Shown here piece after piece: positions 3,001-30,000 of a stretch of 64,000 nucleotides of DNA (position 1 is its first letter; each line of letters starts with the position of its first letter). Source of the stretch: an uncultured Planctomycetia bacterium (lineage in GTDB: Bacteria; Omnitrophota; Gorgyraeia; Tantalellales; Tantalellaceae); NCBI GenBank assembly GCA_964409365.1, contig CAYPCX010000002.1:32984-96983 (forward strand), read 5' to 3'. The translations under genes and the position numbers were made by a program. Under the pieces are notes generated by a model that worked only from the letters and a program-made list of their open reading frames with translations, did no database searches and was not told where the DNA came from.

Positions 3001-6000
3001 AACCTTACGCCGGACACTGCCGGGACCAGTGAGCTGGAGGTCGAGATAGACGGCACGCCGTATGCCTACGGAGTGGTGGAACACGCGGACGGCAGTTTTA
3101 TATTCTATGATCGCGATACCTGCGCTTTCGTGGCGGAAGCCCTGGAAAAGTCGGTCACTCTTGAAGGCAAGGATTTCATCATTCTTACCAGCATCGCGGG
3201 CGGGTTCTCTATAGTGGAAGCCAAGGCGCAGGATATAAACCTTGACGGGACCGTGGATGGAAGGGACAAGGATATCATCCTTTCCAACCTCGGCCTGGAA
3301 GAGGTCGGCGAGCTTTACCGCGCCGATCTCAATAGCGACAATGTCATAGACAGGGAAGACCTCCTCGTGTTCAACGAGCTGGTCCCGGTAGTCGACCGGA
3401 TGCAGCTTGTGAACATGAACGGCGAGGATTTCTATGCCGAATATAATGAGGACGGTAGATTCACTGTGAAGGAGACGGATCTTTCCGAGACTTATACCAG
3501 TGACGAAGATGGTCTTGTCACGATTGGGACCCGGGAATATTTATTCATGACGGTGAGCGGCAGGATAACGGCCGGCGAGGTCTACAGGTGCGATGCCGAT
3601 GCCAACAATATCCTTAACAGCATGGATACGAATACTGTCACGTACGCTTTGGGGTCAGGTCATATCGAACCGGTGGTCATAGGCGAGTGGACGACAGAAT
3701 TTTCAGGGGAGTTCGCCTTTGATATAGACGCCAGTACCTCGGGTTATTACAACGTGGGGCTTGAAATAGCCGCCATGGAAGTGGAAGAAGGGGAAGAGGC
3801 GGAATTCATACCCATGGCCGTCAAGGCCACCCTGGTGCCTTCCGTCGGCGAGGAAAAACTCCTCGGGTATTTTGACGTTCTCCCGAGAGCGGACGCCTCC
3901 GCGCAGGGCAAACTAAGCATCGCGCAGGGCATGTTCACCACCGGCACACAGACGGTAAGGTTCGAATGGACCAATGCCGCGCATATGGACCCGGTGAAGA
4001 TCGAGAAGGTCTTCGTGGAGGATTCAAGATACGCTATAGGCGCGGATCTCAACCAGGACGGTTTCGTGAACGAGGTAGACCAGAGGATACTCCAGACAGA
4101 GAGAACCGCCTCATCCGGCGGGATAGTGGACCTCTATGATCCGACCGTGTCAGATCCCGGTCCGGACGATAAGAACGAATATACGGTGACGACGGATACG
4201 AGAACAGGATCAAGCGGGGATTATACTACCTATATATTCACTGAAGGCGTCTTTTCGACCGAGTCGGATGAGTACGGCCGGGTAACGCTCGGCGCCGGAA
4301 ATTACGAATTCCTCGTGATCGAAAAAGACGGGGAAGTTATCCTTACAAGGCAAACGAGGGAATTCCTCGCCGAGGAAGACGCGCTTGTCTTTGCCTGCGG
4401 GAAGGCCTATCTCTACGATGACGAGACCGGGGTGTTCACCGATGTCGAGACGCCCGGCGATACAAGAGAGGTCACTGACGGCATCGTCGAGCTGGGAGAC
4501 GCTCATATCAAGTATTACGTTATCGAGGAAGCCGGCCAGGTAGTACTCAAAGAGGTCCAGGATACCGGCGCCGTAACGGCGAATGATATCATCCGCATAG
4601 AGGACAGCACGGATTACTTTGAAGATGCCGGCAGTCTCACGATAGGCGGGACCTACACCACGCCGGGTTCGGTGGTCTATGACGTGAGCGAGACGGCGGA
4701 GGGCCAGATAGTGCTGTCGCTGCACGTCGACCGGCACGGGCCCGAAGAGGACAGGTACCTGTTGGTCGAAGGGGAGATCTATCTTGTAGAAGGGAGTGCC
4801 GGAGCATACACTATTACCGCTATTACAGGGGGCCCGGATCCGGTCGTGGATAATGATGCTTCCAAGGTCGCCATAGGCAGCGAAGAATATGACATAGAAA
4901 AACTGGACGCCCAGCGCATCAAACTGACAAGAAGGGTCGACGCGGCAAGGTCCATAGCAGGGCGCATTATAAAGGTGGGCGAGGCGTTGTACACGATAGC
5001 CGCGACCACCGGCGGGGAACATGACTTCGTGAACTTGATGAACAGCTCCGATTTCACCACGAGCGTCCAGCACGAGGTCATGCTCGGCGGGACGATCTAT
5101 CTCGTGGAAAAGGGCGCGGAAGGCGAGCTGGTACTCCGACGGAAGTTCGATTCCGCGGTCGAGGAGGAAGACGCGCGGCTTGTAAGATTCGAGGATCACA
5201 CCTACGAGATCCAGGGTGTTGAAGGAGATTATACGGCCGTTGCCATCCAGGGAGGCGCTTACACCGTCGAGGTGAACAATATCGACAACACCGTGACCTT
5301 TGAGGACGAGACGGAGACCCTCCATGAATTCAGGATAGTGAAGCTCGAGGGAGAAGAAAAACTGGCCCTGGTCGAGGTATCCGCCGAAGCCGCCTCAGAG
5401 GATGCGCGCCTGGTGGATATAGACGGCGAGTATTACCTCTTGGATGAGACGCTCCCCGGAGAGTACACCATATCGGCATACAGCCACGGGGCGCTTGAAC
5501 CCGCGGAAGAGAACGGCCTCTTCATAATAGGAGAAGGTTCCTATGCGACCAGTGTCGATGAGGGCAAGATCATTTTGATAGAAGTGCCGAATGAGGTGGA
5601 AAAGGATGCTGACGCTTTCGTCGTCATCGAGGGTGGTGTCTATACCACGGAAGTGGACGGAGGCGGGGATTTCTCGCTCACGTTCATCGCGGGCGTCGAT
5701 AAGTCACCTGTTATAGATAACGAATACAGCACGGTAACGATGGATTCCGGCGCCGGGAACGTATACAGGATATGGGAAGATCCGGTGACGCTCGAGATAA
5801 ACCTGGAACCATACGTGACATCGAGCACGCCCGAGGAAGAGGAAATAGTCGCCGCCAGTTACGGCGAAGGATATACCGCGCTTTACAAAGCCGAGTTCTC
5901 GACGAACGGCGACGTCCTGTCGTTCGCTCCGGTAATGACCACGGAGGCCACTACCGTCACGTCCGTGCCGGACCTTTCGGTGGAATTCGAGACCCAGATG

Positions 6001-9000
6001 GCAACGATGACGGTCGACGGCACGGAGATCCTGTACGAGATAACGGTGGACGGCGCCTCGGGAGCGGTCACCCTCTCCATGGAACCCGAAAGAAGCACTA
6101 CGACGTATAACCAGAGGATAGAACTGGAGGGCGTGGTCTACGATGTCATCAAGGAAGTCGACGGATACACCATGATCTCGGGAGACAACGTATACACGAC
6201 CGGTTCCTACACCGCGATCACCGTTCTCGGCAAGGATTACGACATATTCACCGATCCGGACACGGAAGATATACGCCTGAGTGAGAAACCGGAAGAAGCG
6301 AGTTCCCAAGTCGGCGAGGTAATGTCGAGCGAGATTACAATAGGAAGCGTCTATACCACTGATACCGACAGCATAACTATAGGGGAAGAGACGTTCACTG
6401 TCGCCCCGGTAAATTTTGGAGCGCTTTCGGCCGAACATACCACCCAGCTCACCCAGAGTATAGGGGATTACGGCTCCGGGCGGGTCAGGGTGGCACTGGA
6501 CAGTTTCGGCAATATTTTTGAATACCTGGACGAGGATCACGACGAGATGGGCCGCGGCCGCGAAACACTGGTCTATCATAAAGAAACGGATACCTATGTT
6601 ACCTACGCCTGGGACGCCGCCCAGGTAACGGTTGACGTGTATTCCGGGGAATACACGAATCAGGGCGAGGACCTCCTGGTGGACGTCACATTGACGGAGC
6701 GGAGGGCGACATACGTCTATGATGGCACATACACGACCAACCTCGACCCTGCCACGAACGGCTGGGTGATAAGGACAGCTGCCGCTTATTCAACGAACGG
6801 CGTGTATACCACACTGGCCCGTGAATATGACGGGACAGGACGTCTCGCGAAAGAGACCAGGCCCGACGAAGACAGGTATTATCTATATCAGTATCACGCT
6901 TCACCAAATGAGTCGGTCGTAAGCGTGATGGAAGAGTATGAGCTCAGCACGGATGAGCTGGTAAGAGAAGAGGAATACCTGACAACGGGTCGGATGACCA
7001 CCAGCACGGCGGGCGGGTTGACCGCGGGATACTATACCACCGGAGCTGGAGCGCTTATCAGGAAGGGTATTTATACCACCGGTGACGTCCGCGAATTCCT
7101 GGAAGAGGATTTTGAGACAAGCTCATCCGGCAGGACGGTCCTGGAATATGACGCCGAATACACTACTTACAGGACATATGAGTGGTCTGGCGATACGGTC
7201 AAGGTAGAGGTGTTCGCCGGGGAATATACCACCGGCCTGTGGGATGAGCTCTGGAACGACGTCGACGAGGCCGAACGTATGACCACGTACATATATGAAC
7301 ACAACAGTAACCAGACGGATACGGACTTGGATACCAACGGCTGGGTCATAGTGAAAGAGGTCGTTTATGACGCCGACGGCAGCACCGTAATGGAATCAAA
7401 GACATTTGACGCGGAAGGGCGCCTTGCCAGGGAAGAGGAAATAGCCGGGGCCCTTTACACGACCTATTCGTATCACCCGACCGGCGGTTACACCACGAGC
7501 AAGAGGGAATACGACAGCGAAACAGGGTTCATCAACAAGTTCTTCCAGTATGACGACCAGGGCCAGATGATCGGTGACTACACGTCCCTGGCCCAGGCGG
7601 ATTACACCAATTACGCGGGATCCGGCAGGCTCATGAGGAGAGTAGTGGATTATGGGGCCATATACGAGTATTACGACGAGGACCATGATGAACTCGGGTT
7701 CGGCAGGGTGATGATCGCGTTCGATCCGGATACGGACACGTACAGGAAGTACAGCTGGAGCACGGACCTTGTCGTGGTGGACGTATACAGCGGGGAATAC
7801 ACCGTTCAGCCGGGAGACGCCGCGGGAGCGGGTATCGTCCTGTCCGAGCGCGTCGCCACATACACCTATTACCATGACCAGGAGAATATCAACCTCGATC
7901 CGGACTCCAATGGCTGGACATTGAAGAGCGCGACGGAATACCAGGCCGGCGGCGTGAGCCTCCAGGCGAAACAGGTCTATGACGCCGAAGGCAGGCTGAC
8001 AGGTCGCGAAGACCTTGCCGCGGGCAAAAAGTACAGCTACGAATATCATACCGAAAGCACGGGCCTGGGGCACACGATCTCGTCCATTAAAGAAAGGTAT
8101 ATTGTTACCGATATCCTTACCGACACGTTCGAGTATAGCGCCTCCGGTAAACTGACGATCCATACGGAAGCCGGTACGGGTGAAGTGGCCGAATATCATC
8201 CGGGATCGGGATTCCTCAAGAGAGAGACTTCGGACGGCAAGGTCTTTGAGTATCTCGAGGAAGATCACGACTCTCAGGGTTACGGGAGGGTGACACTTGT
8301 CTATGATATTGCCGGCGAGACCTATTCCACCTATGACTGGGACGCTGAAACGGTGACGGTAACGGTTTATACGGGCGTATATACGGTCGAAGCGGGAGAC
8401 GGATCGAGGGCCGGCGTGGTAGGATCGCAGAAGGCCGAGCAAAAAGTGTTCGACCACAACGGAGAAATGGTAGACCTTAACGTCCTGAGCAACGGGTGGG
8501 AGCTTGAGGAGAAGACGGCAGAGAACGAGAACGGCTACGCGGTAACTTATTTCTATGACGCGGAAGGAAGGATCGCGAAGAAAGAGATGCTGGACCTCGC
8601 CAGCGGCGCGTATTCCACATACGTCTATCTGTATCACGGATCTCCCGATGAGGTAATGGTGGACTCGGAATACGAGTTCACGTCCATGGAACCGCCGGTC
8701 CTGGAATGTGTCCGCGAATACAGTAACGAAAGAACGTTCATCTTCACCAATGATTCAACGGGTGAGGCGTACACGAGCACGTTCGATAATATGCTTAACA
8801 TAGAGGGCATGCTGTATGACCTGGCGTTCGATGCCGCCAGCGGCATGCTCGAGGTCCGGGAGAAGGGTATCGAGGTCAACGACAGGACATATGAATATGT
8901 TTTTAACGGCGATGACGAGACCTACGTATTCACCGATATCGAAGAAGGCACTTCATACGTGAGCACTGTCTTTACGACCGCGGCCGATTGTTTCGTGAAC

Positions 9001-12000
9001 CTGGCGGACAGCCTTTTCATCATAGAAAGAAATGAAGACATGACGATAGGCCTCAGGGAAAGGACGGTGTCACTGGGTGCGGCTGATTATAATATTTCAC
9101 GGAAAGCCAACGGCGATTACGTTTTCGAGGACAGGGTGGACGGGACGAGGTATACAAGCATCGACGTGGACGGCACGGTGGTCGTCGTGATCGGAGGGAC
9201 CATGTTCGAGGTGCTGACCGATGAGGAAGGCGCCGTGAGCATCAGGCAGCTCCCCAAGGCTGATATAAACGCGGACGGGCTTGTGAACGAAGACGACAGC
9301 GCCGCGCTTTCCGAGATCATTGCGCTGCAGGAGATGATAGATAAGGCCGACATGAGCGGGGACGAGGAAGTGGATTTCGAGGACTGGTCAAGGCTTAATA
9401 CGGTCATAGATGTTTACGAGAACCAGGACGAGATGCTCGAGATCGACCTGGCCAATAAAGAGCTCCTGCAGGACATGGCCAATTATGCCTATAACTCTTA
9501 CCTGCAGAACAAGGCCCTCGAGTTCGATTACAGGGTGAACGAGAGTGACACCAGCTGGCTTAAACAGGTCTATCCGCTGCACGGGGGCGATTTCACCACG
9601 ACCTATCTGGACTACGTGAATAACGGTTATATAGAAGCGCAGGATGTCCAGGACTTCCAGGAAGCCCTGAACTCGCTTGACGTGCTGTTCGATTTCACGC
9701 AGGACGGCGTAACGGACGAAGAGGATATCCAGTGGCTCGAGCTCCTCCTCGAGCTGAAAGATGAGTTTTACGCCTATGAAGCCAAGAACAGCGTTACGAA
9801 CGCCGCCATGTTCCTGCAGAACGCCATGGACGCGGCGGACATAAACAGTGACGGCAGGGTAGATGAAAAAGACCAGGCCATAATACTTAACAGTTACGAT
9901 AATTATCTCCAGAACGACCTTTCCGGTGACGGCGTGGTGAACACGACGGATGTGGACCTGGTCCGCGCGCTGTACGAGACCATATGGCCGGGCGCGTATG
10001 ACGAGAGCGCGCCGCTTATGTGGCCGGATTCGACCTCGCGCAGCGGGGAATCGGTCCTCGCGCGCAGGATCTACGCGTCGAGCTGCCAGATGGACGGTTT
10101 CACCGGGTCCGTGGACAGGAAAGCGGCCCAGGCAGATACGGAAGGCGCTTCGTTAACGTATACGTTCGAGCTGGAAGATACCGATGATTATTTCGTGGGG
10201 CTCTCGGCGAGGAACATAGAGGGCCAGGCCCTGGACGAAGATTTCAGGTATCTGGTCTGGATATACGTTGATGACGTATTTATCGAATCGCTTCTCGTGG
10301 ACTCCTCATCCGACAGGTACGCGGAGAATTCGGTATCCATACCTTTTACCAAAGGCACGCACGAAGTGAAGTTCGTCTTCAAGAACACCTCGGGTATAAG
10401 GCCGGTAGAGGCAAGGGACATTTACGTGAACCGTTCCGGCTTCCAGCTTACCAATTTCGATACCGACCGTGACGGGGAGATAACCGAGCATGACGCGGAG
10501 ACGCTCGAAGCGCTCATTGATACCTATGACATCAGCGGTGATGATGTCGTGGACGATATCGATGTGGATTATGTCAGGGGGCTTGAAGGCAAGACCGATC
10601 TGGACGCAGGGTTCGACGACAGGGTGGATTTCAATAACGATAATGTCATAGACGCGAAAGATACCGCGATCATGGAAGAGGTCATAGACGAGAACGATAC
10701 CAGCAATGATGGCAAGCTCGGCAACAACCTCGACCCGCAGTTCAACGACGTGGACAGGATCCGCGACATAGCCCTTTACTATATGACGGAGAAAGCGTAC
10801 GAGAAGATCTCGGGCAAGTATCTCCTGGACTTCAACGGTGACAGCGAGATAGACCTTCAGGATGCCGATTATTACGTGGACGCGCTGAGCGTCCTGGACC
10901 TCACCGGCGACGGTTACATAACCGACGCGGACAGCGTCATGCTGGGCAAGATAATCACCATGTTCGAGTATGATATCTCCGAGGACGAAGTGGAAAGGGC
11001 CGACATCACCGGCGAGATCACCTTCACCGTCACCGATGGGACAAGCCGGACGGCGATAAACCGCGGCGATGACCTGGTAATAGACGGTATCGATTTCATG
11101 AGCCTGTTCGACGCGGATGAACGCACAGTGGATATTATCGAGACGTTCGACGAAAGCCGGATAACCGACGGTACGGCTGTGAGCCTTAACGGCGAGATCT
11201 ATCTCATCATGGAGGACGAACAGACCGGTCTATTTACGGTAACCGATGGCGAGAAAGAGTACGTCGCGGACGAAGAAGGAGAATTTGAGATAGGGATGCG
11301 CACGTACGTTGTAGGAAGAGACCCGGCAACGCAGGTCGCTTACATCGCGCTTAAAGAGATACGCAGCATACCGGTGGGCAAATACGCGATCGAAGTGGAA
11401 GGCAAAGAATACGTGGTCTCGGCGGACAGCAAACAGGGCGAGTTCATCTTCGATGACGGCCTCAGGCAGTACGCCTCGAATCCCGCGACGGGCAAGGTAA
11501 GGCTGAACGGCCTGTTGTACTCGATAACAGAGGATGAAGAAAATGATACTATTACGCTGGCCAGGGAAGATATTGCCGGCGTTATCAACGGAGGCGTGTG
11601 CGCCGTGGACGGCCAGGAATATCTCTACAGTTTTGATACTACCACTAACGCGCACGTATTCACGGCGGAGGACGGACGCCTGTTCAGAAGCGAAACGGGC
11701 AGCGATGTAGTCCTCCTGGACGGCGTGGCGTTCGAAGTGAACGGGGCGAAGACGGCCCTGACCGAACTCTTTTCCACCGGGAAGATCGCCGACGGCGCCG
11801 TGAAGGTCGGCGCCATAGAATACCTGATCGTCAAGAACGCCGACAATACCTATACCGTAACGGACGGCGCGAAGACTTTTCTGAGCGACGCGCCCGGCGA
11901 AGAAGTAGTGATAGAGGGGTACGCGTATATCATCCTGGAAGACGCCGGGACGGGCCAGATATCGCTCGAGGCGAAAGGCAAAGAGAGCACCGCGCTCGCG

Positions 12001-15000
12001 GACGAGGTAATAGAGGTAGTGGAAGAATACCAGGGCATCAGGACCAGGGGAACGCAGTACAGCGTGACTAGAAATGCACAAGGCCGGTACGAGTTCTCCT
12101 GCGCTTCCAGGACGTATACGAGCTTCAACGAAAGTGGAACGGAGTATATAGACCTGAAAGAGTACCGCTACGTGGTCACTGAGGATGCTTCGGGAGACGT
12201 CCAGCTCGAGTATATCAAGCCCACCCTTGACGGGACTCCGGTAGCTACTTCACTCGAAATGGTCGCCAAGAAGGTAGCCGACGAACTTATCGCCATTGAC
12301 GGAACGGAATACATGATAAAGGTGACCGGTACGAGCGGCGGTTACACGACATACGCGGTCACCAGGGGAGACTGGAGCGGCGAGTTCACCACCACAGCGG
12401 TAATAAACGGAATAAATTATAATATCCAGGAGACCGACGGGAGTATCAAGCTTGTCCTTGAGGCCCCCGAAGTGGACCCGGCATACCTGGCGCTCGAGGT
12501 GCTCAAGCTCGAGAATGGGACCACCTGTTACGTGACGTACGACGGCGCCTACAGCGCACTGGACGCGCCGGACGGGATGCCGCTGGATATGAGCGGATAC
12601 ACGGCAGCGGCCCTTTCCGACGGGAGCGCGAGGGTCCTTTATGTCAAGGATAAGATAGCGGCGGGATATACCACCGAGAGTTCCGCCAACAGCGTAGTCT
12701 CTGTGGGAGGAAGAATATTCGACATATTTACGGACGCCGATGAAAGTATAGACCTCCTGTTGAATGGATGCACCTATGCGGAAGGCATGGGCGTCTATTC
12801 GACCGTCGAGATAGACGGCATCGAGTACGAACTTGTCGAGGGTGCCGAGGGCGAGCTCGCGCTTGTTTCCGTTACGATGAGCTCTTATGATCTCGGCGCG
12901 CAGTGTATCCTGCTTGGAGGAGACCTGTACGCCGTTACGAGGGACGCCGGGACGGGAAATTTCACGGTAGATAACGGTATCGATTCTTACATCAGCCACA
13001 GGCTTAAAGTTCTCGCGGCCAGCGGCGAGCTGGACGGCGAGCCCACGTATTCCGGCGCGGCGCGTACGAACCTGATCAATATCTCCGGCAACACGTACGC
13101 GGTGGAAAGATATCCCGATTCGGACCTCTTCGCGCTCGAGGAGCTCCACCTTGAAAGCGAGCTCATCTTCAGCTCCGGCCAGGTAAAGGTTGACGAGATA
13201 GCTTACCGCGTAAGTTACGACTTTAACAGGGATATCTACACGTTCGAGAACGCGTCGACCGGCGAGGTCTTTGAAAGCGATGACCTGCGCAGGACCGTAA
13301 GGCTTGAGGGAAACGCGCTGTATGACATCTACGTCCACCCGGTCTCAAAAGTTATCACGCTTACGAAGGTGCATACCGCCGAGGCCAGCCCGGACACGCC
13401 GATAGAGGTGAACGGTAAGACTTACATGGTGAGGAAACGCGGCGCCCAAACGTGTAACTTCATCTACATGCCGGACGGCGAGAACGAGGACACCAGTACG
13501 GTCTATTACAGCTACATAATGTTCGGGGAGCACCTTGTGGATATAGACGGCAGGACATATGAAGTGACCGTTACCACCGACGAGACCGAGGGCGAGACCG
13601 TGCGGCTCGACGAAAGGGACGAATATGATTCTTCCCCGATAGTCGCCGGTCAGGGCTCTGTCGAGATAGACGGCAAGGACTATGACGTGGAACTCCTGGC
13701 CCAGGGCGGCTATACGACTTACAAGTTCACTTACGATGACGGGATACATGATCTGAAGGTCTGGTACAGTGACGCCAGATCCGAGGAGGATAGCTGGGCG
13801 CTCCTCCGCATAGATACGGTCCGGTACGAAGTGAGAGAGATAGAGGAAGGCGGGGTCCTCAAGATCAACCTCACCAGGAGCTTCTCCAGCGCGCCGGACG
13901 AGCCGCCGATAAGATTGAGCGGGACGCTTTACAACGTGACCTACGATTACCTCACCGGAAGATACGTGTTCGATAACGGGTATGATCTCTACCAGAGCTC
14001 CGATGAGAGGGACGAGGTGGAGATAGGAGAGACGAGTTACACGATCGCCAGGGATCCCGAGACGAATTCCCTGAAGCTTTCCGAGGTTGATCCGCAGGAT
14101 GTGGAGTTCACCTCCTCCTACACGAGAAGCATGGTCACATTGAAGGACGGCATTACCTATTCCATCCTCCGGACAAGCGACGGTAAGATCAAACTTTCGA
14201 CCACCGGCGCCAGTTACGCAGAGGATACCCAAGGCCGCGTGCAGGTCGAAAACGACCTTTACATGATAAGCGATACCGCGGGCGGGGAGCTCCTTTTCAG
14301 CAGGATCACGGAGAGCGAGACGGTCGAAGGCATGCTCCTGGAGCTCGGGAATTCGTATATTGCCGTCAGGTCGGACGACAACGAGGAAGTGGACGAGGCG
14401 GACATTACCGCCCTCGAAGAAGCCTACCAGAGTTTCAATGCGCTGGATTACAACGGCGACGGCATCCTGGATAAGAGCGACATCGACGCGATGATAAGGG
14501 AGCTCGAGGAAAAACATGCCGAAGTTGCCGATCTTGAGGAGAAAGCGGAGGAAGTGGATGACGTGTACAGGCGCATATATTCTTCGCCGGTATACCGGGA
14601 AGATATTCTCCAGGCCGTGGATTTCGACGGTGACGGATATCCGGACGAGGATGACAGGCTTACCTATGAAGACACGATAGAGAAGTTCAACCTGATGGAC
14701 CTGAACGCGCTTGAAAGGCCGGAAATGGAGGTCATGGAAACGGACACCGAAACGACCATTTACGGCAAAGATTATGATGTAAGCTATGACGGTGTGGAAG
14801 AGAAGTTCATCCTCGAGCGCAAAGATGGCGGCTACAGCACCGAGGTCTCGAACGGCGACAGCGTAGTGTTCGAAGAAACGCAGATAAGCTACACGGCCGC
14901 AGTAGGTGACTATACCACAGATGAGGGGACCATAAAGAGACTTATCCTTACCAGGGATACCGCTTTTGTGGCCGCGGGATATACTACCTCCAGTCCGGCG

Positions 15001-18000
15001 AACATCGTTATCCACGGCAGTTCTTACACGGTGGAAGCGACGTCGCGCGGGATGATCGAAGGGGAAGAAAGGTTCAAGTATACCTTTGAAGCGGCCGGCG
15101 GCGAGACATATGTCAGCGAAATGCCCGGGCTTATACCCAAGGTGTGGATAGAAGGCCTGACGTTCGATATAACGCTCAACAGAGCCGAAGAAAAACTCGA
15201 GCTTGACGAAACGAACATTACCGACACCGGCGAATACCTGACCGCGGCGAGCATTCGTTCCATACTGTCGAGGCTCATGCTCGAGGTCAAGGCCGATGTT
15301 GCAGGGCCGGCCGGTTCCACGGAGCCCGACGGCACGCTCGATGTAGAGGATATAAAACGCCTCAAGATAGACCTGATGGACCTGAACCAGGACGGGATAA
15401 AGGACAACCGCGACCTGGACCTGGCCTGGACGCTCATAGATTTCAACCGGGACCTGGTGACGAAATACGATTACAACCCGAACGGCAAGCTGGACGAAGA
15501 AGACATCAATTCCTTTAATGTGCTTCGCGGCGGGTCCACGGGGCTGGACCTGGATCTCAACAACGACGGCAGGACTGACGATCTCGATGCCAAATATCTT
15601 ACCCAGATCGTCACCGTGGAGCTTGTGAAACAGCACACCTTCGCCCGGGTCGACCGCGATTTCAACGGGATCATAGAAGAGGACGAGGAAGAGGACGAGC
15701 GGACAATGCTGGAGAACCTCTTCACCATATCTTCGGCCGATCTGGACTCGGACGGTGTGATCGACAAAGAAGACCTGGACAGTTTCGACCAGATCAGGAC
15801 GTTCATAGACGATATCATGGGTATATACGGGACCCAGACCGTTGTCGCGGCCGACATCAATGAAGATCACCTGGTGGATTACAGGGATGTCTCGCTCCTG
15901 GACCAGGCTATAAGGTCTTACGCGGACATAAGCGGTGATTACTCCGTGACGATCAAAGACGATTATATACTCCAGGCCATAGTCCAGCCGGATTCTTCAG
16001 GTGTTACGGAACTTCCGCTGTACGGGATAAAGATCATCGACCTCGCGCAATATATTCTCCCGGAAAGCGCGAAAGAGAAAGCCGATCTTGATAACAACGG
16101 GACGATAAACTACGCCGATTTCGAAGCGTGGTCGCAGTTCGATATGAACGAGATACGGGATACCTACAGCGCCGCCGGGAGTTTTGACGACCTGGAAGGT
16201 TTCAGCACGAAAGACGGGACCATCACCACGAACGAAAAGAGCGGCTCGTTCTCGTATAATATCGTGCCGCAGGTATCCGGCGTATACCACCTGGCGATAA
16301 AGGCTTCCAGCAGCGCGCTTACCGTGCTTGATTTCAGTGTGTACGTCGACGGTGAATACCATTCTTCCTTCAGCCTGGGCACCTCATCGAGCATGGCCAC
16401 GGAAGGTTACGTCCAGATCGAATTTGACGGCGACGCCACCGAACATGAGGTCATGTTCATGATGTCCAACCCCAGCACCAGGGACATGTCGGTCAGTATC
16501 GAAGAGTTCATACTTACCGAACCGGTCCCGACGGCTTACGATATAAACGGTGATTACCGGTACACCACCGAAGACGGACAGGTGATACAGAGGATGATCG
16601 CCGCGCAGGTGTTCATAAACGAGTGCGATATAAATTCTGACGGCGAGGTCGACGTTGACGACCTTACCGCGCTTGACCCGAACGGGGACGGTTACATAAC
16701 CGGCAGTGAAGCCGATTTCGACGCGGACGGTAATGGAAGTGTCAGCCAGGCGGAGGCGCGCAGGGACGCCGACCGTGACGGGGATATCGATGATGAGGAC
16801 CTTGAGCTTCTGGGGCACATGCTTGAGACGATAGATTTCATATCGCGTTCGGACGTTAACGGAGATTCCTTTATTGACGCCAAAGACCTCAGTTCGCTCC
16901 GCCAGAGCATGGACGTGCTGGATTCCTCCGAGAGAAGGGCCCTTACCGTGGACCTGGCGGAAGGGATAGCGGATGAATTCCACACGGTGAGCAGGGATGA
17001 ACTTGCAAGGAGCGACCTGAACGGCGACGCTCTCGTGGATTCAAGGGACCTCGGCATGATAAGGCTTTACGTGGAAGAAGGTCTAATAGATACGATAATC
17101 GATCAAGATATACCTCTCCTTGAAGGAGCTTCTCTAGAGATGAGCGTGGGCGATACTACGTATGATACCGGCGATATCATCAGGATACTGGCGGCTCTCG
17201 ACGGGTTGGAAGAGAAGGACGGCGAACTCTACAAGTTCCTCCTGAAAGAAGAGGGCTTCGACCAACCGAGCCTGCCCGACTGGACCGCGGGATCCGGGGA
17301 CTGGAGTATAACCGATTCCAGGTGCTCCCAGCTTGAGGAGGGCACATCGAGCGCCAGGATCGTTTACGAAGGCGCGCTCGAGGCGGAAGATTTCATCCTG
17401 GAAACGCAGGTCAGGCTCAAGAGGACCAAAGCGAAGGTAACCGGCGGAGCCGGGATCATGTTCCATTTCCAGGACGAGGATAACTATTACGAGTGCGTCC
17501 TGAATCCCAAGCTGCAGCGCGTAGAGTTCCGCAAGGTGGTGGACGGAGGAGAACCGGCAACGATAGCGTACAGGAGGCTGGAGACCACTTCGATAGGAAG
17601 GCTGGATACTTCCGGCGCGTCCTGGTACGACCTTAAGGTGGAAGCGAATGGCCGGGAATATACTTTCTATCTCAACGGCGAGGAGATGTTCACCGCTGCC
17701 AGTTCCACGTTCACGGGCGGCAAGGCGGGTCTTGTGTGCGCCCCCGGACAGAAGGCCGATTTTGACGATTTTGTGCTGGGTACCGGCAGCACTCTCAAGG
17801 AGATGCTGAGGGATGCGACGCTGGAGGAAGACCTTGACGTCGACGGCGTAGTGGACGCGTGGGATTACGCGATACTGAACGCCCTCGATGACCTGCAGGC
17901 GGAGTCCTCTGTCGAGGTGGTCCGGGCGATGGCCAGGATAAGCCGCGGGGACGTCAGCGGGGATAATAACGTGAACGAGGCGGACAGAAAGGCTTTTGAT

Positions 18001-21000
18001 ATCGACCAGGACGATACCTCTGACCAGGAGGATGTCTTCATAGTGGAAGAAGCGGCGAGGATGGGAAGCGAATATCTCAGGTTCGATATCGCTGATCTCG
18101 ATCAGGACGGACAGGTGACGGAAGATGACGAGACACTGCTTGACGAGATGCTGGCCAACATGGTCGATATCAACGCCGACGGCGTGTTCGATGAAGACGA
18201 CCTCGATCTTTTCGAGTCGATCGATGAATACATGGACCTCGATTTCAGCGATTCCTGGGCCCAGCGTTCGGACGTCAACGGCGACGGTTTCGTGGACATG
18301 CAGGACGCGGACGCGATCGAATATGCCATTGAATACAGGGCGAGGACAAAGGACATAATCTTGAGCATAATGGACGAGATCGTTACTAACCTTGCCAGGC
18401 CGTACTCCGATCCGCAGTCCCTCGTTACGCCTGACGACTTCGCGAAAGCGGACGTCAATAATGACGGCAAGGTCGACGGCGCCGATATTGCCGATATCCA
18501 GGGCAAGATGGATTTTGTCAATGCGTCAAGCGATCCGGAACTGGCTTACACGATGATCGATATCTACAAGTACGACATGAACGGGGATACCGTGTTCTCC
18601 GAAGAAGACGTTACCATGCTGGAGAACGTAGAAGAAAGGGTAGAAGACGGCAGGGTGCTGACGGCGCAGGATTACGCGAAATACGACCTGGACGCGGACG
18701 GGTCGATCGACGCGGACGATCGCGCTATTGCCGGTAACGCCCAGGCATATTACATCGACGTGGATGCGTCCGGCAAGGTAGACCTGCGCGACAGGGACTG
18801 CGTAATACAGACGGTCTACAAGAATTCTCTCGGGGTGACCGGGTCCATGATAAGACGATGCGACGTGAACTCGAACGGCCGGATAAACAGCGACGACCTT
18901 GACCTCCTGACCGAAGCCCTGAGCGCCAAGACGGTGATGGACTCGGACGGCGACGGCACGCTCGAGGCCGGGGAGATCAATGACATGCGCGACCTCATCA
19001 CGGGTTTTGTCGAAGGTTATATAGCGGACAAAGATGCGATCGCTTCGGCGGACATGAATTCGGACGGCCTGGTGGACAAGCTTGATACGGCATATCTGGA
19101 ACAACAGATAGCCGATCTCAAGGTCGAGATGATAGAGATGGAAGGCAGGATAGCCAACGCGCCGGTCGCCATGCTGGAAGCGCGGCTCGAAGCGGTGGAC
19201 GTCAACGGCGACGGCAGGAGGACACAGGAAGACCTGGACCACATAGCCGCCATAATAGAGTATCTGGATCACCAGGCCCAGGACCAGATCACGGAACAAT
19301 TGATCCTCGCGGCAGACGCTAACCAGGACGGCAAAGTGGACGATGCCGACATGGAACTCATGGACATGCATTTCGACCCGGCTTACGTCAACATGCTTGA
19401 CCTGGACTCGGACGGTTTCATCACCAGCGACGATTTCAGCACGTTCGAAGGTATAAGGCAGGCGATGACGGACGGCGACATACCCGGCATAGACCAGTTC
19501 GAGAAGTATGACCTCAACGCCGACGGGACCGTGGATATACAGGACGTGGATACCGTCAAGGGTGCTTACATGGGCCGCGTGGATATAGACAATGATTTCG
19601 TCATTAACGACAAATCTTCCGATAACGGCGGTCCGGACGATGACACCACGGACAAAGAGCTTCTCGAGGACCTTGTCAGGATGCAGGACCTCGTGGACGA
19701 AATGAACGCGCTCACCTCGGGTGATGACCCGCTGAGCGTCAGGCAGGTCCTGATAAACAGGGACCTTGCCGATAACAGGCAGGCCGGGATCAACCGTTTC
19801 ATGATAGCCGCCGAGCTTGATTCCAGCGGTGACGGTAAGATCACGTCCGACGATATCGATATCTTCGCCAACAGCCTGGAGCAACAGGATAATTCCTATT
19901 ATGACATCAATAATGACGGCATCTTTAATTCCCAGGACGTCTTCCTCATCGAAGAGATATTCACGGAGATAAACAACTACCAGATCCATGAAAGGCCGAG
20001 CATTCTCGAAGACCAGCCGTGTGTTTACGGCCGGACGATACTCCAGCCGGTGGAGTACGATATCCGGGACATAACGAACGACCTGGTGGTGGACGAGGCC
20101 GACCTCGAGGCCCTGCAGGAAGCGAGGGACCGGATGATGTCGTTCACCGAGGACCAGCTGGTGAGACAGGAAGACGCCGAAAGGATCGTCAAGTTCCGCG
20201 CGCTCAACATGCCGATAACGCTGGAAGACGTGTACAGGTCGAACCTGGTCACGGCGAACGACGATGATGAGAGCCTGAGGATAGGAGACGTCATAGGCAT
20301 CCAGCATCCGGGTGAGTCCACCGTGGACATGACCGAAGAAGAAGAGCAGAAGAAATGGATCGAGTTCTCCCAGGCCGGCTATATCGTCAGAACGATGAAG
20401 CTGCCGCTGGGCCAGGATCCCAAGAGGCCCCGGATAGAGAACGACCTGTACTCCCACGCCGAAGAGATCGGTGGAGGCGATCCCGATCCGGAACCGGTAC
20501 AGCCCGGCTATGAGAATATATTCGACGGCAGAGGCTTCGGCCCGTATCTCACGACGGCCGGTTATACCCAGACAGCCGAAGGCGTGATCAACTGGTACGG
20601 CTACCCGATAGTAATAGACGTCGACGAATTCGTAGTACCAAGTGATACGGACGAGGACGGCCTGGTGAACGCGAAAGACATCTTCTACATAGACACTGCC
20701 ATGGATAACGTGGAACTCGGCGAGTTCCTCTCGCTGTGGCAGCTCACCATGAGCGATATAAACAGGGACGGGGTGTTCGACGCGGGCGATGACGACGCCA
20801 TGAGACTGGTGCTGGATAACGCGGTGGACATTAACGGTGACCTGATGATAACCGAGGACGACATACAGACCGTCTACAGCCAGAGAGAAAAGATCCTCGA
20901 GGCCAAGGATGTGAAGGCAAAGATAGAGACGCTGGATGAGATGCTCGCAAGCGGCAGTTATACCACGCCGGAAGCCAAGGCCCAGCTTGAAGAGATCATC

Positions 21001-24000
21001 GATTACCTCGGCCTCCAGACGATGGAAGGGAACGTGGCAAGTTCGTTCGACGCCAAACTCGAGCTCCTGACCAAGGTCCTCAAAGAGGAGATCTTTACCC
21101 CGGACGTGGCAATGGCCACGCGGCAGGAACTCCTCGAGGAAATGGTGGAGAAACTCGGCATAGTGCCGGAGAGGGCGCCCAATTACGCGGGTGTCTCGCT
21201 TGAGGATTCACAAAAGTCCTGGCTAGAGGGAGAACTGGGCGAGCTTTTCAGCTTCGGCCAGCTCGACAAGAACTCGGACGGAAAGATAACCCAGGCGGAA
21301 CTCCTCCAGACCCTTGCCGGTATATTCGACTTCGAACAGCTGGACGCCGACGGCGACGGCGTGACGACCCAGAGCGAGATCGACGACATGGCGCAGGTCA
21401 TACGCGATATCCTGGAGACGAGCACTCTCTCGAGCGCCGACCTGGAAAGCGCCGATATAAACGAGGACGGCGTGGTGAACGGTTTTGACCGGGATCTCCT
21501 GGAAACGGTGATAGAACACAGCTTCGACGTCAACCAGGATACCGTGATCGATGAGGATGACATGAAGGACTGGCTGAGGATCTACGATTATATGGGGTAC
21601 AGCCTGGAGGAGGACGAAGAGGCCGGTATATGGCATCTCGTCGATCTGGAGAACGCGGACATAGACGGAGACGGTCTCATAGAAGGCGGATGGTATCTTG
21701 ACGAGGTCGCGGCGTGTGAAGAGAACCCGGCGGGATATGAGTTCGCCGAATGGGACCAGGACCGTTATCCCGAGGCCTGGTCGGACAGGACGGCGTATCT
21801 GGATAACATGCTCGAGGTCCAGGACCACCTGAACGTCCTTGACTTCGACCTTGACGGCGTGTTTGACCAGTCCGACGTGAGGGCGGTAACGGACCTCATG
21901 CTGTTCATCGAGAACAGCACCATAGAACGGGATATGGAGAACCGGAACGTCGCGGACCTCCCCAACGATTATGACCTCCTGAACGAGAGCTTTCTCGGCA
22001 GGGACGGCGTGGTCAACGATATCGATATCGCCACGTTCCTGGAGGTCACCGACCCGGCCAGGCACGCCGACGTCAACAGGAGCGGCCAGGTGACCGACAG
22101 GGATGTCAACCGCATAAGGGAGATCATGGATTTCGATTCTATCAGGGACGAGTGGGAGGACTGGAACGCCTCGTACACGGAAGAGGACCCCTACTGGATA
22201 AACACGAACCTCACCGACAGGATCATACACGTGGAAAACAGGCATTTCAGGATAACGTATGAAGCGATCTCGGGCATATATATCTTTGAACCTTTCTATG
22301 TCCTGGAAAGCGAAGTGCCGGATGAACCTGAGGACAACATTCTCAGCGACCCGGAGGCCGGCACGGTAACGATAATGGGCAAGGACCTGGAGGGCAACTA
22401 CACCGAAGAATACGTGTATAGCATCGAGGTCGATCCGGAGACCGGAAAGCTCACCCTGATCAGAGGGACAAGGGAAGCCGCGGAACAGAGCGCGCTCCGC
22501 GCTTACATGGAGAGAGCCGATCTTACCGGCGACGGCAAGGTGAACTATTTTGACAAGAACGTTCTCCAGGACGTGAGGGATAAAGCCGCCTCCGCCGGTA
22601 TTACGCAGATGGACCAGCAGATGCTGGACACGGTAAAAGAGGTATTCGCCCTGGTGAACGCCTGGACGGTCACGCTGGAGAAAGAAAAATGGGTGAGCGA
22701 GAACGTATATGACCAGGTGATCACCATGGAGGGCAAGAAGCTGGGGATCGAGATAGTGACCGGGGACAATACCACCAGCTATGTCTTCTATGATATAGAC
22801 GGCGGCAACAGGGCCTACCAGGCCGATATGGACGAGATGACGGTGCATATAGGCAGCGTGGTCTACCTTATCATACCCAACGAGGCGACCGGCGATATCC
22901 AGCTCAGAAAGCTCTACATCAACAGCTATGAAGTCGGTGACTGCGCGATCACCGTGGAAGGAAGGGACTTTGTCGTCACTAAAGACGAGACGAGCGGGAT
23001 ATACGAGTTCAGGGAGGGCACCAGGATATATGAGAGTCAGCACATAGAAGAGAAGGATTACGTGATAATAAACGGCGCGCCGTGGGAGATAGTGGAGACC
23101 GGTTCGGGCGAGGTCAGCCTCTTCAAGAAAGCGGAACAGGCTACCAGCACGCCCGTTTCCGAGGACCTGCAGGTGATCGTCCTTTACAGCAACCTTTATA
23201 CGACGAATAAAGTATACACGGTCGACGATTCCGATCCCGACATGCTGGTCTTCTCGAACGCCGAAGCGACCTACGTGACGCTTAAAGGCGAAGATACCGT
23301 GGTCATCGAAGGCACGCTCTACGATGTGGATTACGATGCCGCCACGGGCGAGGTCACCCTTACCGAGGTGCTTTTCGGCGACTTCGACGGCGACTATTCA
23401 GTGACGGCCGAAGAACAAGCCATGCTCAGCTCAGCCATAGGCGCGTACACGACCGGCGTGCTCGAAGCCGGCGGCGCGGCGTCCCTGTACGTGGATATAT
23501 ACGGCGTCCGTTACGACATCATCGTCGAAGAGGACGGGTCCATAACGCTTGCCGAACGCATTATCCGGTCCAGCTTCGTCGACACGATAAAGGTCGGCAC
23601 GACCACCTACAAGGTCACCACAGAGACCCTGACGGAATCCGAAGAAGGCGACAGGTTCGACCACGACGTGCTCGTGTTCACCGAAGTATCCCTGGTGGAG
23701 ACCGAATTCTCCTCGCGGACGGGAAGCTATACGACATACGTGATACAAGAAGGAGGCTATACCACCAGCGACTACGACATGGAAGAGGTGACCATCGGCG
23801 GTCAGACTTACGGGATAAGATGGCTTGCCGAAGGCGGCATAGAACTTTTCGATACCGGCACCGAGGATGCCGTAAGTTCCGCCGGTGATTTCCTGATATT
23901 GGAACTTACCTCTACGACGGATGAAAATGACGCTTTTGCCACCAGCCGCTGGCTGGGAGACGGAAAACTGGATATCAGCGGCCTGTACCCGTCGGATACG

Positions 24001-27000
24001 CGTTTCGGCATGTCGACGATCCTTGCCAGCAAGGACGGCGATACTTACGTCTTCGCCCTGAACGCGGAACTGGACGAAGCGGCGCTCGAGGATATCCGGG
24101 TGGAAGGCGGATATTCCGATACGGGCACCTGGGATGACATCAAGCAGGTGCTCATGGACGAGTTCAAGCGCACTACCTATTATTACAGCGATACCAGGAC
24201 GGACACGGTAGAGATCGGCGGGATATTGTACGATATAGACGAGATAGGGGAAGAGATAAGGCTTACCGCCAGGGAAGTGATCGCCGGTGAGGCGGGTACG
24301 GGAAGTATTGAGCTTGCCTGCGTGGAAGAAGCGGGAGAGTACGTTTTCTACGGGCCCGTAGGAGTTAGCGGAAGCGCCCAGACCATCCGGCAGGATGAGG
24401 ACGGGACAGTGGTGTTCGGCAATTACCAGCGCTACCAGGTCAACGAGATACCCATGGGCGCTTATACCACGGTCACGCTCAGCCAGCTTTCCAGGACGGC
24501 AGGGGTGACCGCGCCCAAGGAGATAATAGAGGTATACGGCGTCAATTACAAGGTCACGGATAACGGCGACGGAACTTATACTTTCACGGACGGCACTTAT
24601 CTTTACACCAGTGACGCCACGACCCAGACGGTGAGACTGGGCGAGATGCTTTTGACGACAGCGGAACGATATGAAAGCGGCATGACGGAGGAAGAGCTCG
24701 AGGACGTCAGGGGAGTGCTGTATGACATATCCTTTGACGCGGAGAGTAATATAGTCCTTACCAAGCACGCCGAGGAGATAGGCGCCGCGCAGGTGTTCGA
24801 GGTCGCGGGAGAGATCTTCGCCGTTACCACCGATTACAAGGGCGACAAGACGATAATGACGTACCCGGCCGGTGTCGTCGTGGCTGAACTCGCGCTGGAG
24901 GAAGACATCCTGGCCCTCGGTGACAGGACGTACGATGTTACCAGGGACGCGGGCGGCAAGATCAGCCTCCAGTGGAATACCATACAGTCCGTGGATATCG
25001 AACTCGTCAAGGTTGCCGGCGTGAGATATTGCGTGAAAGAGACGGCCGATCCCGAACACCTCTACGAGTTCGATTACATGGGAGAGGTAACGGCCAGTTA
25101 TTCGACGGCCGAAGGCCATAAAGTGGACCTGGGCAGCGGGGCGAACATCCTTACTTACGACATTTTTATCGACCAGGAGAGCGGCCGCCTGCGTCTTATA
25201 GAGGATTACATGGAAGGGACCACGGCGACCGGCGCTTTTATCACCTTTGACGGAAAGACGGATCCTTATGATGTGGGAATAACCGGGACCACCATAACCA
25301 TTACTGACGGCGAGAATACCGTAGTGATCGAAAAAGCATCTGCCGATTTTACGAATCTGGTCATAACGCTGGTAGTGGATGACAGCGGTACGGAGGAAAG
25401 GGACTATTACGTTATCTACGATCCGGGCGACGAAGAAGTGGAAGAGAGCATATCGCTGAGCGCTTATACCACGACGGGAACGAACGACTTCCTGGCCTCC
25501 GGGATGAAACAGATCGTGAACCTGGGCGGCATATGGTACAGCATAGTGGAAGAAGACGACGGGTCATACAGTTTCGCGTGGACAGGGTCCGATGATGTCG
25601 ACCATGTGCAGAACGCTTTTCTCGATGATGGCGAAGTGACCCTTGACGAAAACGTTATCTTCACGCTCGAGGCGGATTACACGACCGGAGCCCTTACCCT
25701 TACCCAGAGGGATTATCTGACCAGCCGCGATGTATCGCTCTACCCGGTCGAAGGCGTCCTCGCGAGCAGGATAGTCGAGATAGGCGGTGTCGAGTACGTG
25801 CTTGAATACGAGGTCAAGCAGGAATGGTCGGATGACATCAGGGACCCGGCGAGCGACGTATACGAATATTCGGCGCCGTACGGTTTCACGTACCGCAGTG
25901 GAGCCGCCACTACTTCGGGATACATCACCGTGCCGTATTTCACCCTGACGAGCGTCGAAGACGGCGTGACCTACGAGAACAGGGTGGTCACGACGGGATA
26001 TGCCCCGACGCCCGTTTCGGAAGAGTCAATTCCATACGTGGATTCATCGAGGGAAGAAAGCCGCTTCATAATAGACCTTCCGGAGATGTCCATCGGGCTT
26101 GAAGGTTATCCGGAACTTTACGCGCCGGCGCTTGAGGTGGTCGACACCCAGACAGGCGAAAAGAAGCTGTTCTATATATCCGAGAGGTCCAGGGAGGAGG
26201 GCGTCAATTCTTATTACCTGTATTCCGACGGCGAGTATTACGCCTTCAATGCGTACGGCGACGATCAGGAAGAGAACGCCGATCTTCTGACCGTGATAGA
26301 CCTTAACGGGACCGATATCGAGATAGAGATCAATGACGCGGTGGACCCGGACGGGGCGGTGGAGGGCGCGCACGGGTATATCAGCCAGACATGGTCATCC
26401 GCCACCAGGGCGCGCCATTTTCCGGAACCCCTTACCATCGATGTGGACGGCGACGGCGAGTATGATGAAGGGGACGGAGATGAGTTCACCGACATGAACG
26501 GCAACGGCGTATGGGACGAGTATGATATGTATGGCGGCCGTTACACCGTTAACTTTATCGATAAAGTTCCGCTCAATGTCGTGACCGGCCGCCAGGCGGA
26601 GCTGGTCGAGTGCCAGGTGGACTGGGAGAACGACGAGCTTGTCTATGCCGGCGGCGAACATCAGGTCCGGCAGGAGATCGAGATCGACGGCCTCAGGTAT
26701 TACGTGTATCCGGAGGGCGATACCCTGAAGATCGACGCGCTGCACCTCGAGAGCGTGGCCGTGGAAGGTAACCGCCAGGCGCTCATACTGGGCACGAAGG
26801 AATACGGGACCGAGATCGACGTGGACAGCGCTTACGGCCTGAACTACGCCGCGTCGGAAGAAGATGACGGCAGCGTGGTCTTCACCGACGGTTTCAACTC
26901 ATACACCAGCGATCCGCTGACCGGGACCGTCGATATCCTCGGGAGGACATTCCGGGTGATACAGGACGGGACCCCGGATATGCCAGGATGGACGTGCCGC

Positions 27001-30000
27001 CTTGTAGAGGCCCACCCGGTAAGCCTGAAGGCGGGTACGGGCGTTATCAAGGTCGTCCAGACCGACAAGGAATACACCGTAACACGCCTTTCCGACGGCA
27101 CCTACGAGCTTGAGGACGGCGATACGGGGACGAAATACACCAGCTACAAGAGCGTGGAAGTGGACGAAAGGATCTTCAGGATAACCGAGAGCGCCGAAGG
27201 CGTTATAACCCTTGAAGAAGAGAAAGAGGCGAGGCCGCCGCTCAACGCGGTGGAGATAATAGGCACGATCGTCGGTATCGCTGCCAGGGACAGCAGCGCT
27301 TCGAGCGCGGCGGACAGTTTCGCCAATTCCCTCATCAACATGTTCACCGACCTCTATGATGCCGATATATATTCCTGCATGGAAGAGGATCTTTACGGTG
27401 TCACGGACGAGGCGAGGGACATGGTCCTCAGGATAAGGTTCGACGGCGAGTACGTGATGGCGGTCTTTGACGGCACATACGGCAAGGCGGAGTTCGAGGA
27501 AAGGGTGAAAACGGAGGTAAGTGCGAAGTTCAACTTCGACAAGGCGCTCCTGGACGATCCCGGCGAGACAGAATACACCGTGGAATGGCTGAACATAACG
27601 GACGTGGAAGCGGACTTTGACGATCTCGCCGAACCGAAGCCGGCTTCTTTCATATGGCCCAACACCGAGGCGGCGTGGCTCGCGGCGAGGGCCGAGAAAT
27701 GGGAAGAAGTGGACGGCATAGATTACTCCGATCTGGGCGACGGAGCGGTATATATACTTGGAAGCGAGCCTGTTACCGGGATCGAAGACGTGTATACGGG
27801 ATTGAGAGTGGTCCGCGGCGATGAGTACGGCCTGTATGAGACGGAATACGTCCACAACCAGAGCGACGGGTATTCCAACGAGTGGATCAAGGAATTCGAC
27901 GCCCTGGTAAGGAGCACGCGGTACACGCTGCCCGATTACAGTGACGCGTTCGGCTACGACGTTTCGGAACGCATTTACGCTTACGTGAACGAACTGGAAA
28001 AAGCGTTCGAACCGGTCTCCAGCGGGGAAGACCGCGACTATATCGATGACGGGGATCTTGCCGCGGCCGAAAGGGTCATTTCTTCCTACAGGCCGGACGG
28101 TTTCCGTATCGCCGGCAAGGATTTCGACCTGGTACAGGACGAGACGGGCCAGTACCAGCTTATCGAGAAGCATACGTTCTCCAGCCATGTCGAGCGCGGC
28201 GAGGACTTCCTGGGCAGCGAGGACGAGAACATCGTGACAAAGCTGGAGTTCGAGGACCAGTATTCCGTGCCGCATGAGATCTATTATTTCACGCCGGCGT
28301 TCGAAGAGGACCAGACCAATATTATCAATGGCATCATCATGACCTACGGTATAAACCCGGGAGACATCACGACCACGCATTATACCCTTACCTATTTAAG
28401 GACCGGCAGCGGCGCCGAACATACCGAGCTGGTCGGGGATATACAGTACCTGGACGGAGGGGAGATCCTTGGCGAGAAGTTCGTCGTGGACGGTAAGAGG
28501 CACGATATCGAGGAAGACGCCAACGGTGTGATAGAAGTGGCATATGACGTTTCCGCGGAAGATATCATAGTCAGGATAGAGTTCACCACCGAGAGCGGCG
28601 ACCAGGAAGTGTTCGGCATATTCGACGGCACCTTCGATAAGGACGCGTATATCGAATACCTTAAGGCCGGGATAGCGGCCGAGTACACGGTGACCGGGGT
28701 CTTCACGACCACGACATACAGCCTCAAGGACCTGAGGGAGGCCTTCATAGCGAACGAGGACGGGGATCTGGTGACAGCCCTGGGATACGATAACTACGGC
28801 CTGGACGGCGAGACCTTCAAGATCGGCCAGGACAGGTACAGGGTGTTCGCTAATTCCTGCAACGCCGATAAAGAGGACATCCTGATCATTCGTGAGAAAT
28901 ACAACGAGACCACCGAAGGATATGATTCATTCGACTACAGCGTATCTACGGCCGCCGACAACATCCTGAAGATATCCGGGACGATGTACACCGCCGTGCA
29001 TACGACCGATCCGTTGCACCCGCAGCCCGGCCACGAGGAATGGGAGACGTATTATTACGAGATCTACGATGAAGAAGGGGTCATGGCGGCCTGGACCGAA
29101 CCCGTCGAGGTCGAAACGGACGTATGGGAGTGGCGTCTCACCATGCACGGCAAGACGTATGACGTCGAAATAGATGAGGCGAGGGACGGTATCATCCTGA
29201 GCGAGCGGACCAAGACGAGCGAGCCGGTCGTGGTGGACCTTTACGAGAGCACTTACGGCGGCGATGATGACGATACGGATGACGTGGAGATAAAGAGTTT
29301 TTGCGGCTTAAAGGCGGAAATGATGATGGTCGGGTTCACGCCGTCGCCGGGAGAGAATCCGGGAGCCTTCTGGTGGTTCGTGGAGGTGGAGCGCAAGTAC
29401 GAGATCACCGAACAGGGCGAGACTGAACCCAGGTACGGCAAGGTAGTAACACAGGATTCCGGAGACCTCGCGGGCCATGGCGTTATCCCGGAATACCTTA
29501 ACACCGTCAAGATCAAGGTCGGCGCGAACAAGTACGTCCCGCATGATATCTTTATCGAGGACCTTGGTGACGGCGAGCCGGGCAGGTTCTACGTGGCTTA
29601 CGATACGGCCTATACAACCGAGATAAACGATCCGGAAGCAGCAACATACATGACCGTTGAATTCACCGAGGATATGACGGTGACCATAGACGGAGCCAGG
29701 TACAAGGGCATCAAGCATTATGATGTGGCAGGGGATCTGGTGAGCGTTTCCCTGAGCAGGATCACCGAAGAGATCACCGTCCATGACGGCCTTCAGGTCG
29801 AAGGCCAGTATCTCTTCCAGGGACATATCGACGGAACTTACAGGGTAGACGTGGGCTCCGGGCAAGAGGTCGTGGACACGAGAGATTTCGGATTGAGCTA
29901 TCACCCCGAGGTTTATGAGACCGACCCCGCCGCCAACACTGTTGTTCTGGACGATGGCAAGGTATACGAGGTAGCGATAGATCCCGCGGATCCCTCCCAG

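Follow-up and report, generated by a model that had tools for sequence, protein, structure and literature searches.

The window (the whole 64-kb stretch of DNA that we analyzed) lies inside a single giant open reading frame (ORF). Frame +1 contains no stop among its 21,333 codons, while the remaining five frames have 119-1,134 each; Pfam domains are distributed all along frame +1. Neither end of the ORF is inside the window, so its length is at least 21,333 codons. The dockerin-type array at nt 14446-22140 is thus an internal part of a much longer protein and not a separate one. The main features are listed below, where "tiles" are the ten 290-aa pieces of the array that were compared with Pfam models.

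1..63999, + strand: giant ORF, internal portion of a gene; 21,333 codons without a stop, open at both window edges
2851..3009, + strand: separate upstream two-segment dockerin; loops at aa 951 and 984
3229..3384, + strand: separate upstream two-segment dockerin; loops at aa 1078 and 1109
14446..22140, + strand: the array, 45 dockerin-type Ca2+-binding loops and five non-loop domains; aa 4816-7380, frame +1
14446..14655, + strand: loops 1-2 (aa 4816 and 4874); EF-hand_7 and EF-hand_5 matches in tile 1
14656..15378, + strand: B1, inserted beta-rich domain of an unnamed family; aa 4886-5126
15379..16119, + strand: eight loops; aa 5127-5373
16120..16539, + strand: B2, inserted beta-sandwich-like domain; aa 5374-5513
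16540..17085, + strand: seven loops; aa 5514-5695
17257..17709, + strand: DUF1080 / 3-keto-disaccharide hydrolase-type concanavalin-like domain; aa 5753-5903
17830..19938, + strand: core tandem array, 18 loops; aa 5944-6646
18739..19128, + strand: four-loop unit used for modelling; aa 6247-6376
19939..20643, + strand: B3, inserted domain of an unnamed family; aa 6647-6881
20644..20862, + strand: three loops (aa 6882, 6919, and 6943)
20863..21264, + strand: H1, helical insert; aa 6955-7088
21265..22140, + strand: seven loops; aa 7089-7380; Dockerin_1 at 41.6 and 33 bits in tiles 9-10

We counted as a loop any 12-residue motif that starts with Asp and fits 6 or more of the 7 consensus positions (D1, D/N/S3, D/N/S/G5, G6, hydrophobic 8, D/N/S/T/E9, and D/E12). 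By this definition, aa 4816-7380 contain 45 loops, while 1.8 (maximum 6) would be expected from 200 shuffles with the region's own acidic composition. This agrees with the 45-48 loops that had been estimated, and the proposed ends are exact: loop 1 begins at nt 14446, and the final loop and its helix finish at nt 22140. Under a strict regular expression, the region has 25 loops and the entire ORF has 45 (0.12 expected). An HMM of the loop plus its helix had 27-33 matches within the region and no match above 2 bits on reversed or shuffled sequence. The array is the stretch of the giant protein that is richest in loops, and its loops correspond to about 22 module equivalents. The two additional dockerins proposed upstream are also real.

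The assignment to the dockerin/EF-hand type is borne out by Pfam. Dockerin_1 scored 106.5 bits on a 4,800-aa chunk that contains the array, with 6 individually significant stretches. All ten tiles matched it, 6 with scores higher than the gathering cutoff, and together they hold about 24 stretches at E ≤ 1; the strongest tiles were in the core tandem array (58.1 and 50.7 bits). EF-hand_1, EF-hand_5, EF-hand_6, and EF-hand_7 were above their thresholds in several tiles. The loops are of the dockerin type rather than classical EF-hands: position 12 is Asp in 38 loops and Glu in only 6, and Dockerin_1 aligns onto loop pairs that are 35-37 residues apart. Positions 1, 3, and 5 are Asp, Asn, or Ser in all 45 loops, and position 12 is acidic in 44, so the loops carry the full set of Ca2+ ligands and presumably bind Ca2+.

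The initial annotation placed the loops every 25-40 residues, which is right, and the spacing is bimodal: intervals of 24-28 and 35-39 residues alternate, which gives 61-aa two-loop modules without linkers. About 12 loop pairs show the canonical spacing of 33-41 residues. We found no linkers between modules, no Pro/Thr/Ser-rich segments, and no DNA tandem repeats. At nt 16627-16800, four loops are just 15-16 residues apart, without helices between them; this arrangement is kept in orthologues and has the same spacing in L001, whose layout mirrors that of the window. The description of the region as "almost entirely" loops was an overstatement, as 24-mers of loop plus helix account for 41% of it. 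Also, only three interruptions had been reported (16249-16521, which is within B2; 17281-17781, the DUF1080 domain; and 20880-21180, H1), but there are five, including B1 and B3. B1 has no Pfam match and no PDB sequence match at E < 0.05, and it is kept in 4 relatives. B2 has no match in Pfam or PDB; it is 39-54% identical in 5 relatives, and in the species genome collection it occurs on only two contigs, both from Omnitrophota metagenome-assembled genomes (MAGs). The loops at aa 5362 and 5514 directly adjoin B2 on either side. The DUF1080 domain is just above its cutoff (PF06439, 26.9 bits vs. 26.8, E = 6e-6). B3 has no Pfam match and is kept in P0023 and P0025. The sole Pfam match for H1, which is kept in 4 relatives, is a sub-threshold hit to SecA_SW (16.5 bits vs. 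a cutoff of 26.7).

The loops are kept position by position in orthologues whose overall identity to the window is just 50-55% (45 of 45 loops in P0023, 44 of 44 in P0025, and 33 of 33 in P0030). The spacing series 37, 24, 35, 26, 37 is common to the window, P0001, and P0002, so the periodicity without linkers is kept across species. Ca2+-ligand positions are 69-100% identical between orthologues. By position, identity is 0.97 at position 1, 1.00 at position 12, 0.77 at position 8, 0.75 at positions 5 and 6, and 0.75 at position 16 in the core of the helix, versus 0.29-0.32 at the exposed positions 7, 10, 11, and 14. Positions 10 and 11, at which classical dockerins recognize cohesin, are among the least conserved in orthologues (0.32), and across the 45 loops their entropy is near the maximum (3.2-3.5 bits). 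In the tandem core, where the spacing is regular, identity is 3-30% at exposed positions and 50-83% at core positions. Fast-evolving exposed positions are still compatible with lineage-specific, co-evolving partners.

Orthologues are colinear with the ORF at 48-55% identity across 1.8-4.8 kaa (52% over 4.8 kaa in the best-extended case). All of them are partial proteins from Candidatus Omnitrophota MAGs. The exact sequence of the window had no match in the two contig collections that we searched. Given the Omnitrophota orthologues and the single giant ORF, we assign the protein to the "Dockerin-type giant proteins" of Omnitrophota (West-Roberts et al. 2023, bioRxiv 10.1101/2023.11.21.568195) and not to a cellulosome; the earlier cellulosome framing was wrong, and this class of giant surface protein was already described. 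The same ORF encodes DUF1080, ILEI, and many Laminin_G_3 domains; downstream of the array, concanavalin-like lectin domains follow one another over a long stretch. It is acidic throughout (D+E about 20%, K+R about 6%; the array region has a net charge of -409), and it has no transmembrane segments across the window (the highest 19-mer mean hydropathy is at most 1.56). These domains, the acidity, and the absence of hydrophobic 19-mers match the published Dockerin-type giant proteins, and among the relatives, P0038 has a C39 peptidase-like domain, which has also been reported for one member of the class. Unlike the published proteins, the window has no Pfam matches to bacterial TSP3 repeats, discoidin, or GNAT domains, and the transmembrane anchor and SecA-like domain at the gene ends would be beyond the window. 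Because the gene ends, signal peptide, and membrane anchor fall outside the window, we infer, rather than observe, that the array protein is extracellular. [quoted passage not shown] 2023, PMC10066038) to 15 copies of PF00404 (the upper limit for a "dockerin-bearing" class; bioRxiv 10.64898/2026.06.07.730766). Some public fragments, however, are packed more densely than the array (P0020 has 74 loops in 2,796 aa).

An AlphaFold2 model of the four-loop unit, built from a 60-sequence alignment, had a pLDDT of 82.2 and a pTM of 0.43. It has three helices per module (residues 16-30, 35-41, 51-67, 77-91, 98-104, and 114-129) in the order loop-helix-short helix-loop-helix, but the packing between modules was not confidently placed. 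A 336-aa model was poor (pLDDT 55.5, pTM 0.23). The initial annotation had proposed fold prediction as a check. In three dimensions, neither solved dockerins nor EF-hand pairs matched the four-loop model significantly. Taken singly, helix-loop-helix units fit EF-hand sites at 2.1 Å over 34-40 residues, and no four-helix EF-hand lobe was recovered (TM about 0.2). By sequence, the four-loop profile matched calmodulin at 1e-10, and the closest solved protein was PDB 8x39/8x3a, with 4 of 4 loops aligned one-to-one (E = 2e-12). This "Serine protease" entry is, we presume, the tandem double dockerin dDoc_0689.

As cited in PMC12484212, dDoc_0689 is from an S8 protease of Clostridium thermocellum (Chen et al. 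2024). Cellulosomal type I and double dockerins share with the array a Ca2+ loop of 12 residues that ends in Asp (position 12), the helix that follows, and the pairing of loops about 35 residues apart. However, they have 2-4 loops (up to 14 in septuple dockerins), so the scale of the array is indeed far beyond theirs, and they form a C-terminal tag on an enzyme, whereas these loops are internal to a giant protein. The solved double dockerin also has about 12 extra residues between modules. EF-hand proteins such as calmodulin, polcalcins, and Entamoeba CaBP1 share the helix-loop-helix Ca2+ site and are the best, though weak, structural matches, but in 38 of the 45 array loops position 12 is Asp instead of Glu, and the setting of the array is presumably extracellular and structural, as opposed to cytosolic signalling. 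A resemblance to RTX or cadherin arrays had also been suggested. The likeness is only functional, in that many Ca2+ sites are proposed to stiffen a long secreted protein, as in RTX beta-rolls, cadherin arrays, and thrombospondin type 3 repeats, and the closely spaced loops at nt 16627-16800 approach TSP3 density. However, neither the RTX nonapeptide nor the TSP3 motif (DxDxDGxxDxxDxC) was found, the ORF within the window has no cadherin or TSP3 Pfam match, and the fold of the array is predicted to be helical.

We considered whether the array might be a polyvalent scaffold, or "inverted cellulosome," in which each two-loop module recruits a cohesin-bearing protein so that many partners are carried. 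Besides the Dockerin_1 scores and the dozen canonically spaced loop pairs, double to septuple dockerins are known in cellulosomal bacteria, and one double-dockerin module binds cohesin (PMC12484212). Nevertheless, this seems quite improbable: Pfam identified no cohesin domain in the 21,333 aa, the recognition positions are variable both within the array and among orthologues, the exposed faces of the regular core differ, the flexible linkers that would give partners access are missing, and no solved dockerin superposes significantly. We also think it quite doubtful that the array is itself an adhesin. For a giant Omnitrophota ORF with nine dockerin domains of a non-cellulosomal kind, Seymour et al. 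proposed that these domains "may serve as adhesins" (PMC10066038), and the protein studied here is rich in lectin-like domains, but those domains are the more obvious ligand binders, and the exposed faces of the modules evolve quickly and differ from module to module.

Another explanation is an intramolecular clamp or "ladder," in which flanking loop-helix segments pair across each beta-sandwich insert and pack on it. The array would then be a chain of composite domains instead of a uniform rod. West-Roberts et al. (10.1101/2023.11.21.568195) describe a similar composite fold, a repeating dockerin/CBM35-like subunit predicted in another giant protein of the Dockerin type. All five inserts do lie between two loops (4874/5127, 5362/5514, 5672/5944, 6635/6882, and 6943/7089), and B2 adjoins loops on both sides. 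However, exposed positions show no significant excess of conservation in the loops that flank inserts (0.44 vs. 0.38 in the other loops, p = 0.12), and no more than 10 of the 45 loops could take part in a clamp, as the 18-loop core has no inserts; we consider it unlikely. Lastly, an acidic, low-complexity sequence could mimic Ca2+ loops, or the giant ORF could be an assembly artifact: the ORF is uniformly rich in D and E, and the antisense frame is also poor in stops. We rejected this, as its probability is negligible given the shuffled controls, the silence of the HMM on reversed or shuffled sequence, the lack of DNA tandem repeats, the colinear orthologues that keep every loop, and the absence of Pfam matches in antisense ORFs.

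We therefore favor, with a probability of roughly 0.6, a Ca2+-stabilized structural stalk that spaces lectin-like domains within a giant Omnitrophota protein. Of the two roles originally suggested, a rod seems to fit better than a scaffold. The lack of linkers between modules and the conservation of ligand and core positions, while exposed helix positions evolve quickly, support a rod; the models do not provide structural proof, as their pTM values are low and the inter-module packing is uncertain. In a stalk, each 12-residue loop would hold one Ca2+ with side chains at positions 1, 3, 5, and 12 and would lead into an amphipathic helix (the dockerin "F-hand"), and two loops about 35-39 residues apart would form one dockerin-like module of 61 aa. 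Where a module ends, its last helix would lead directly into the opening loop of its neighbor, making a chain without linkers that, when loaded with Ca2+, would be stiff and strongly negative. Both the rigidity of the array and its role in spacing and adhesion are inferred. Such a stalk would space and orient the inserted beta-sandwich and lectin-like domains (DUF1080 and the unnamed B1-B3), and it would hold the downstream concanavalin-like lectin domains off the cell, where they could contact the surface glycans of another cell.

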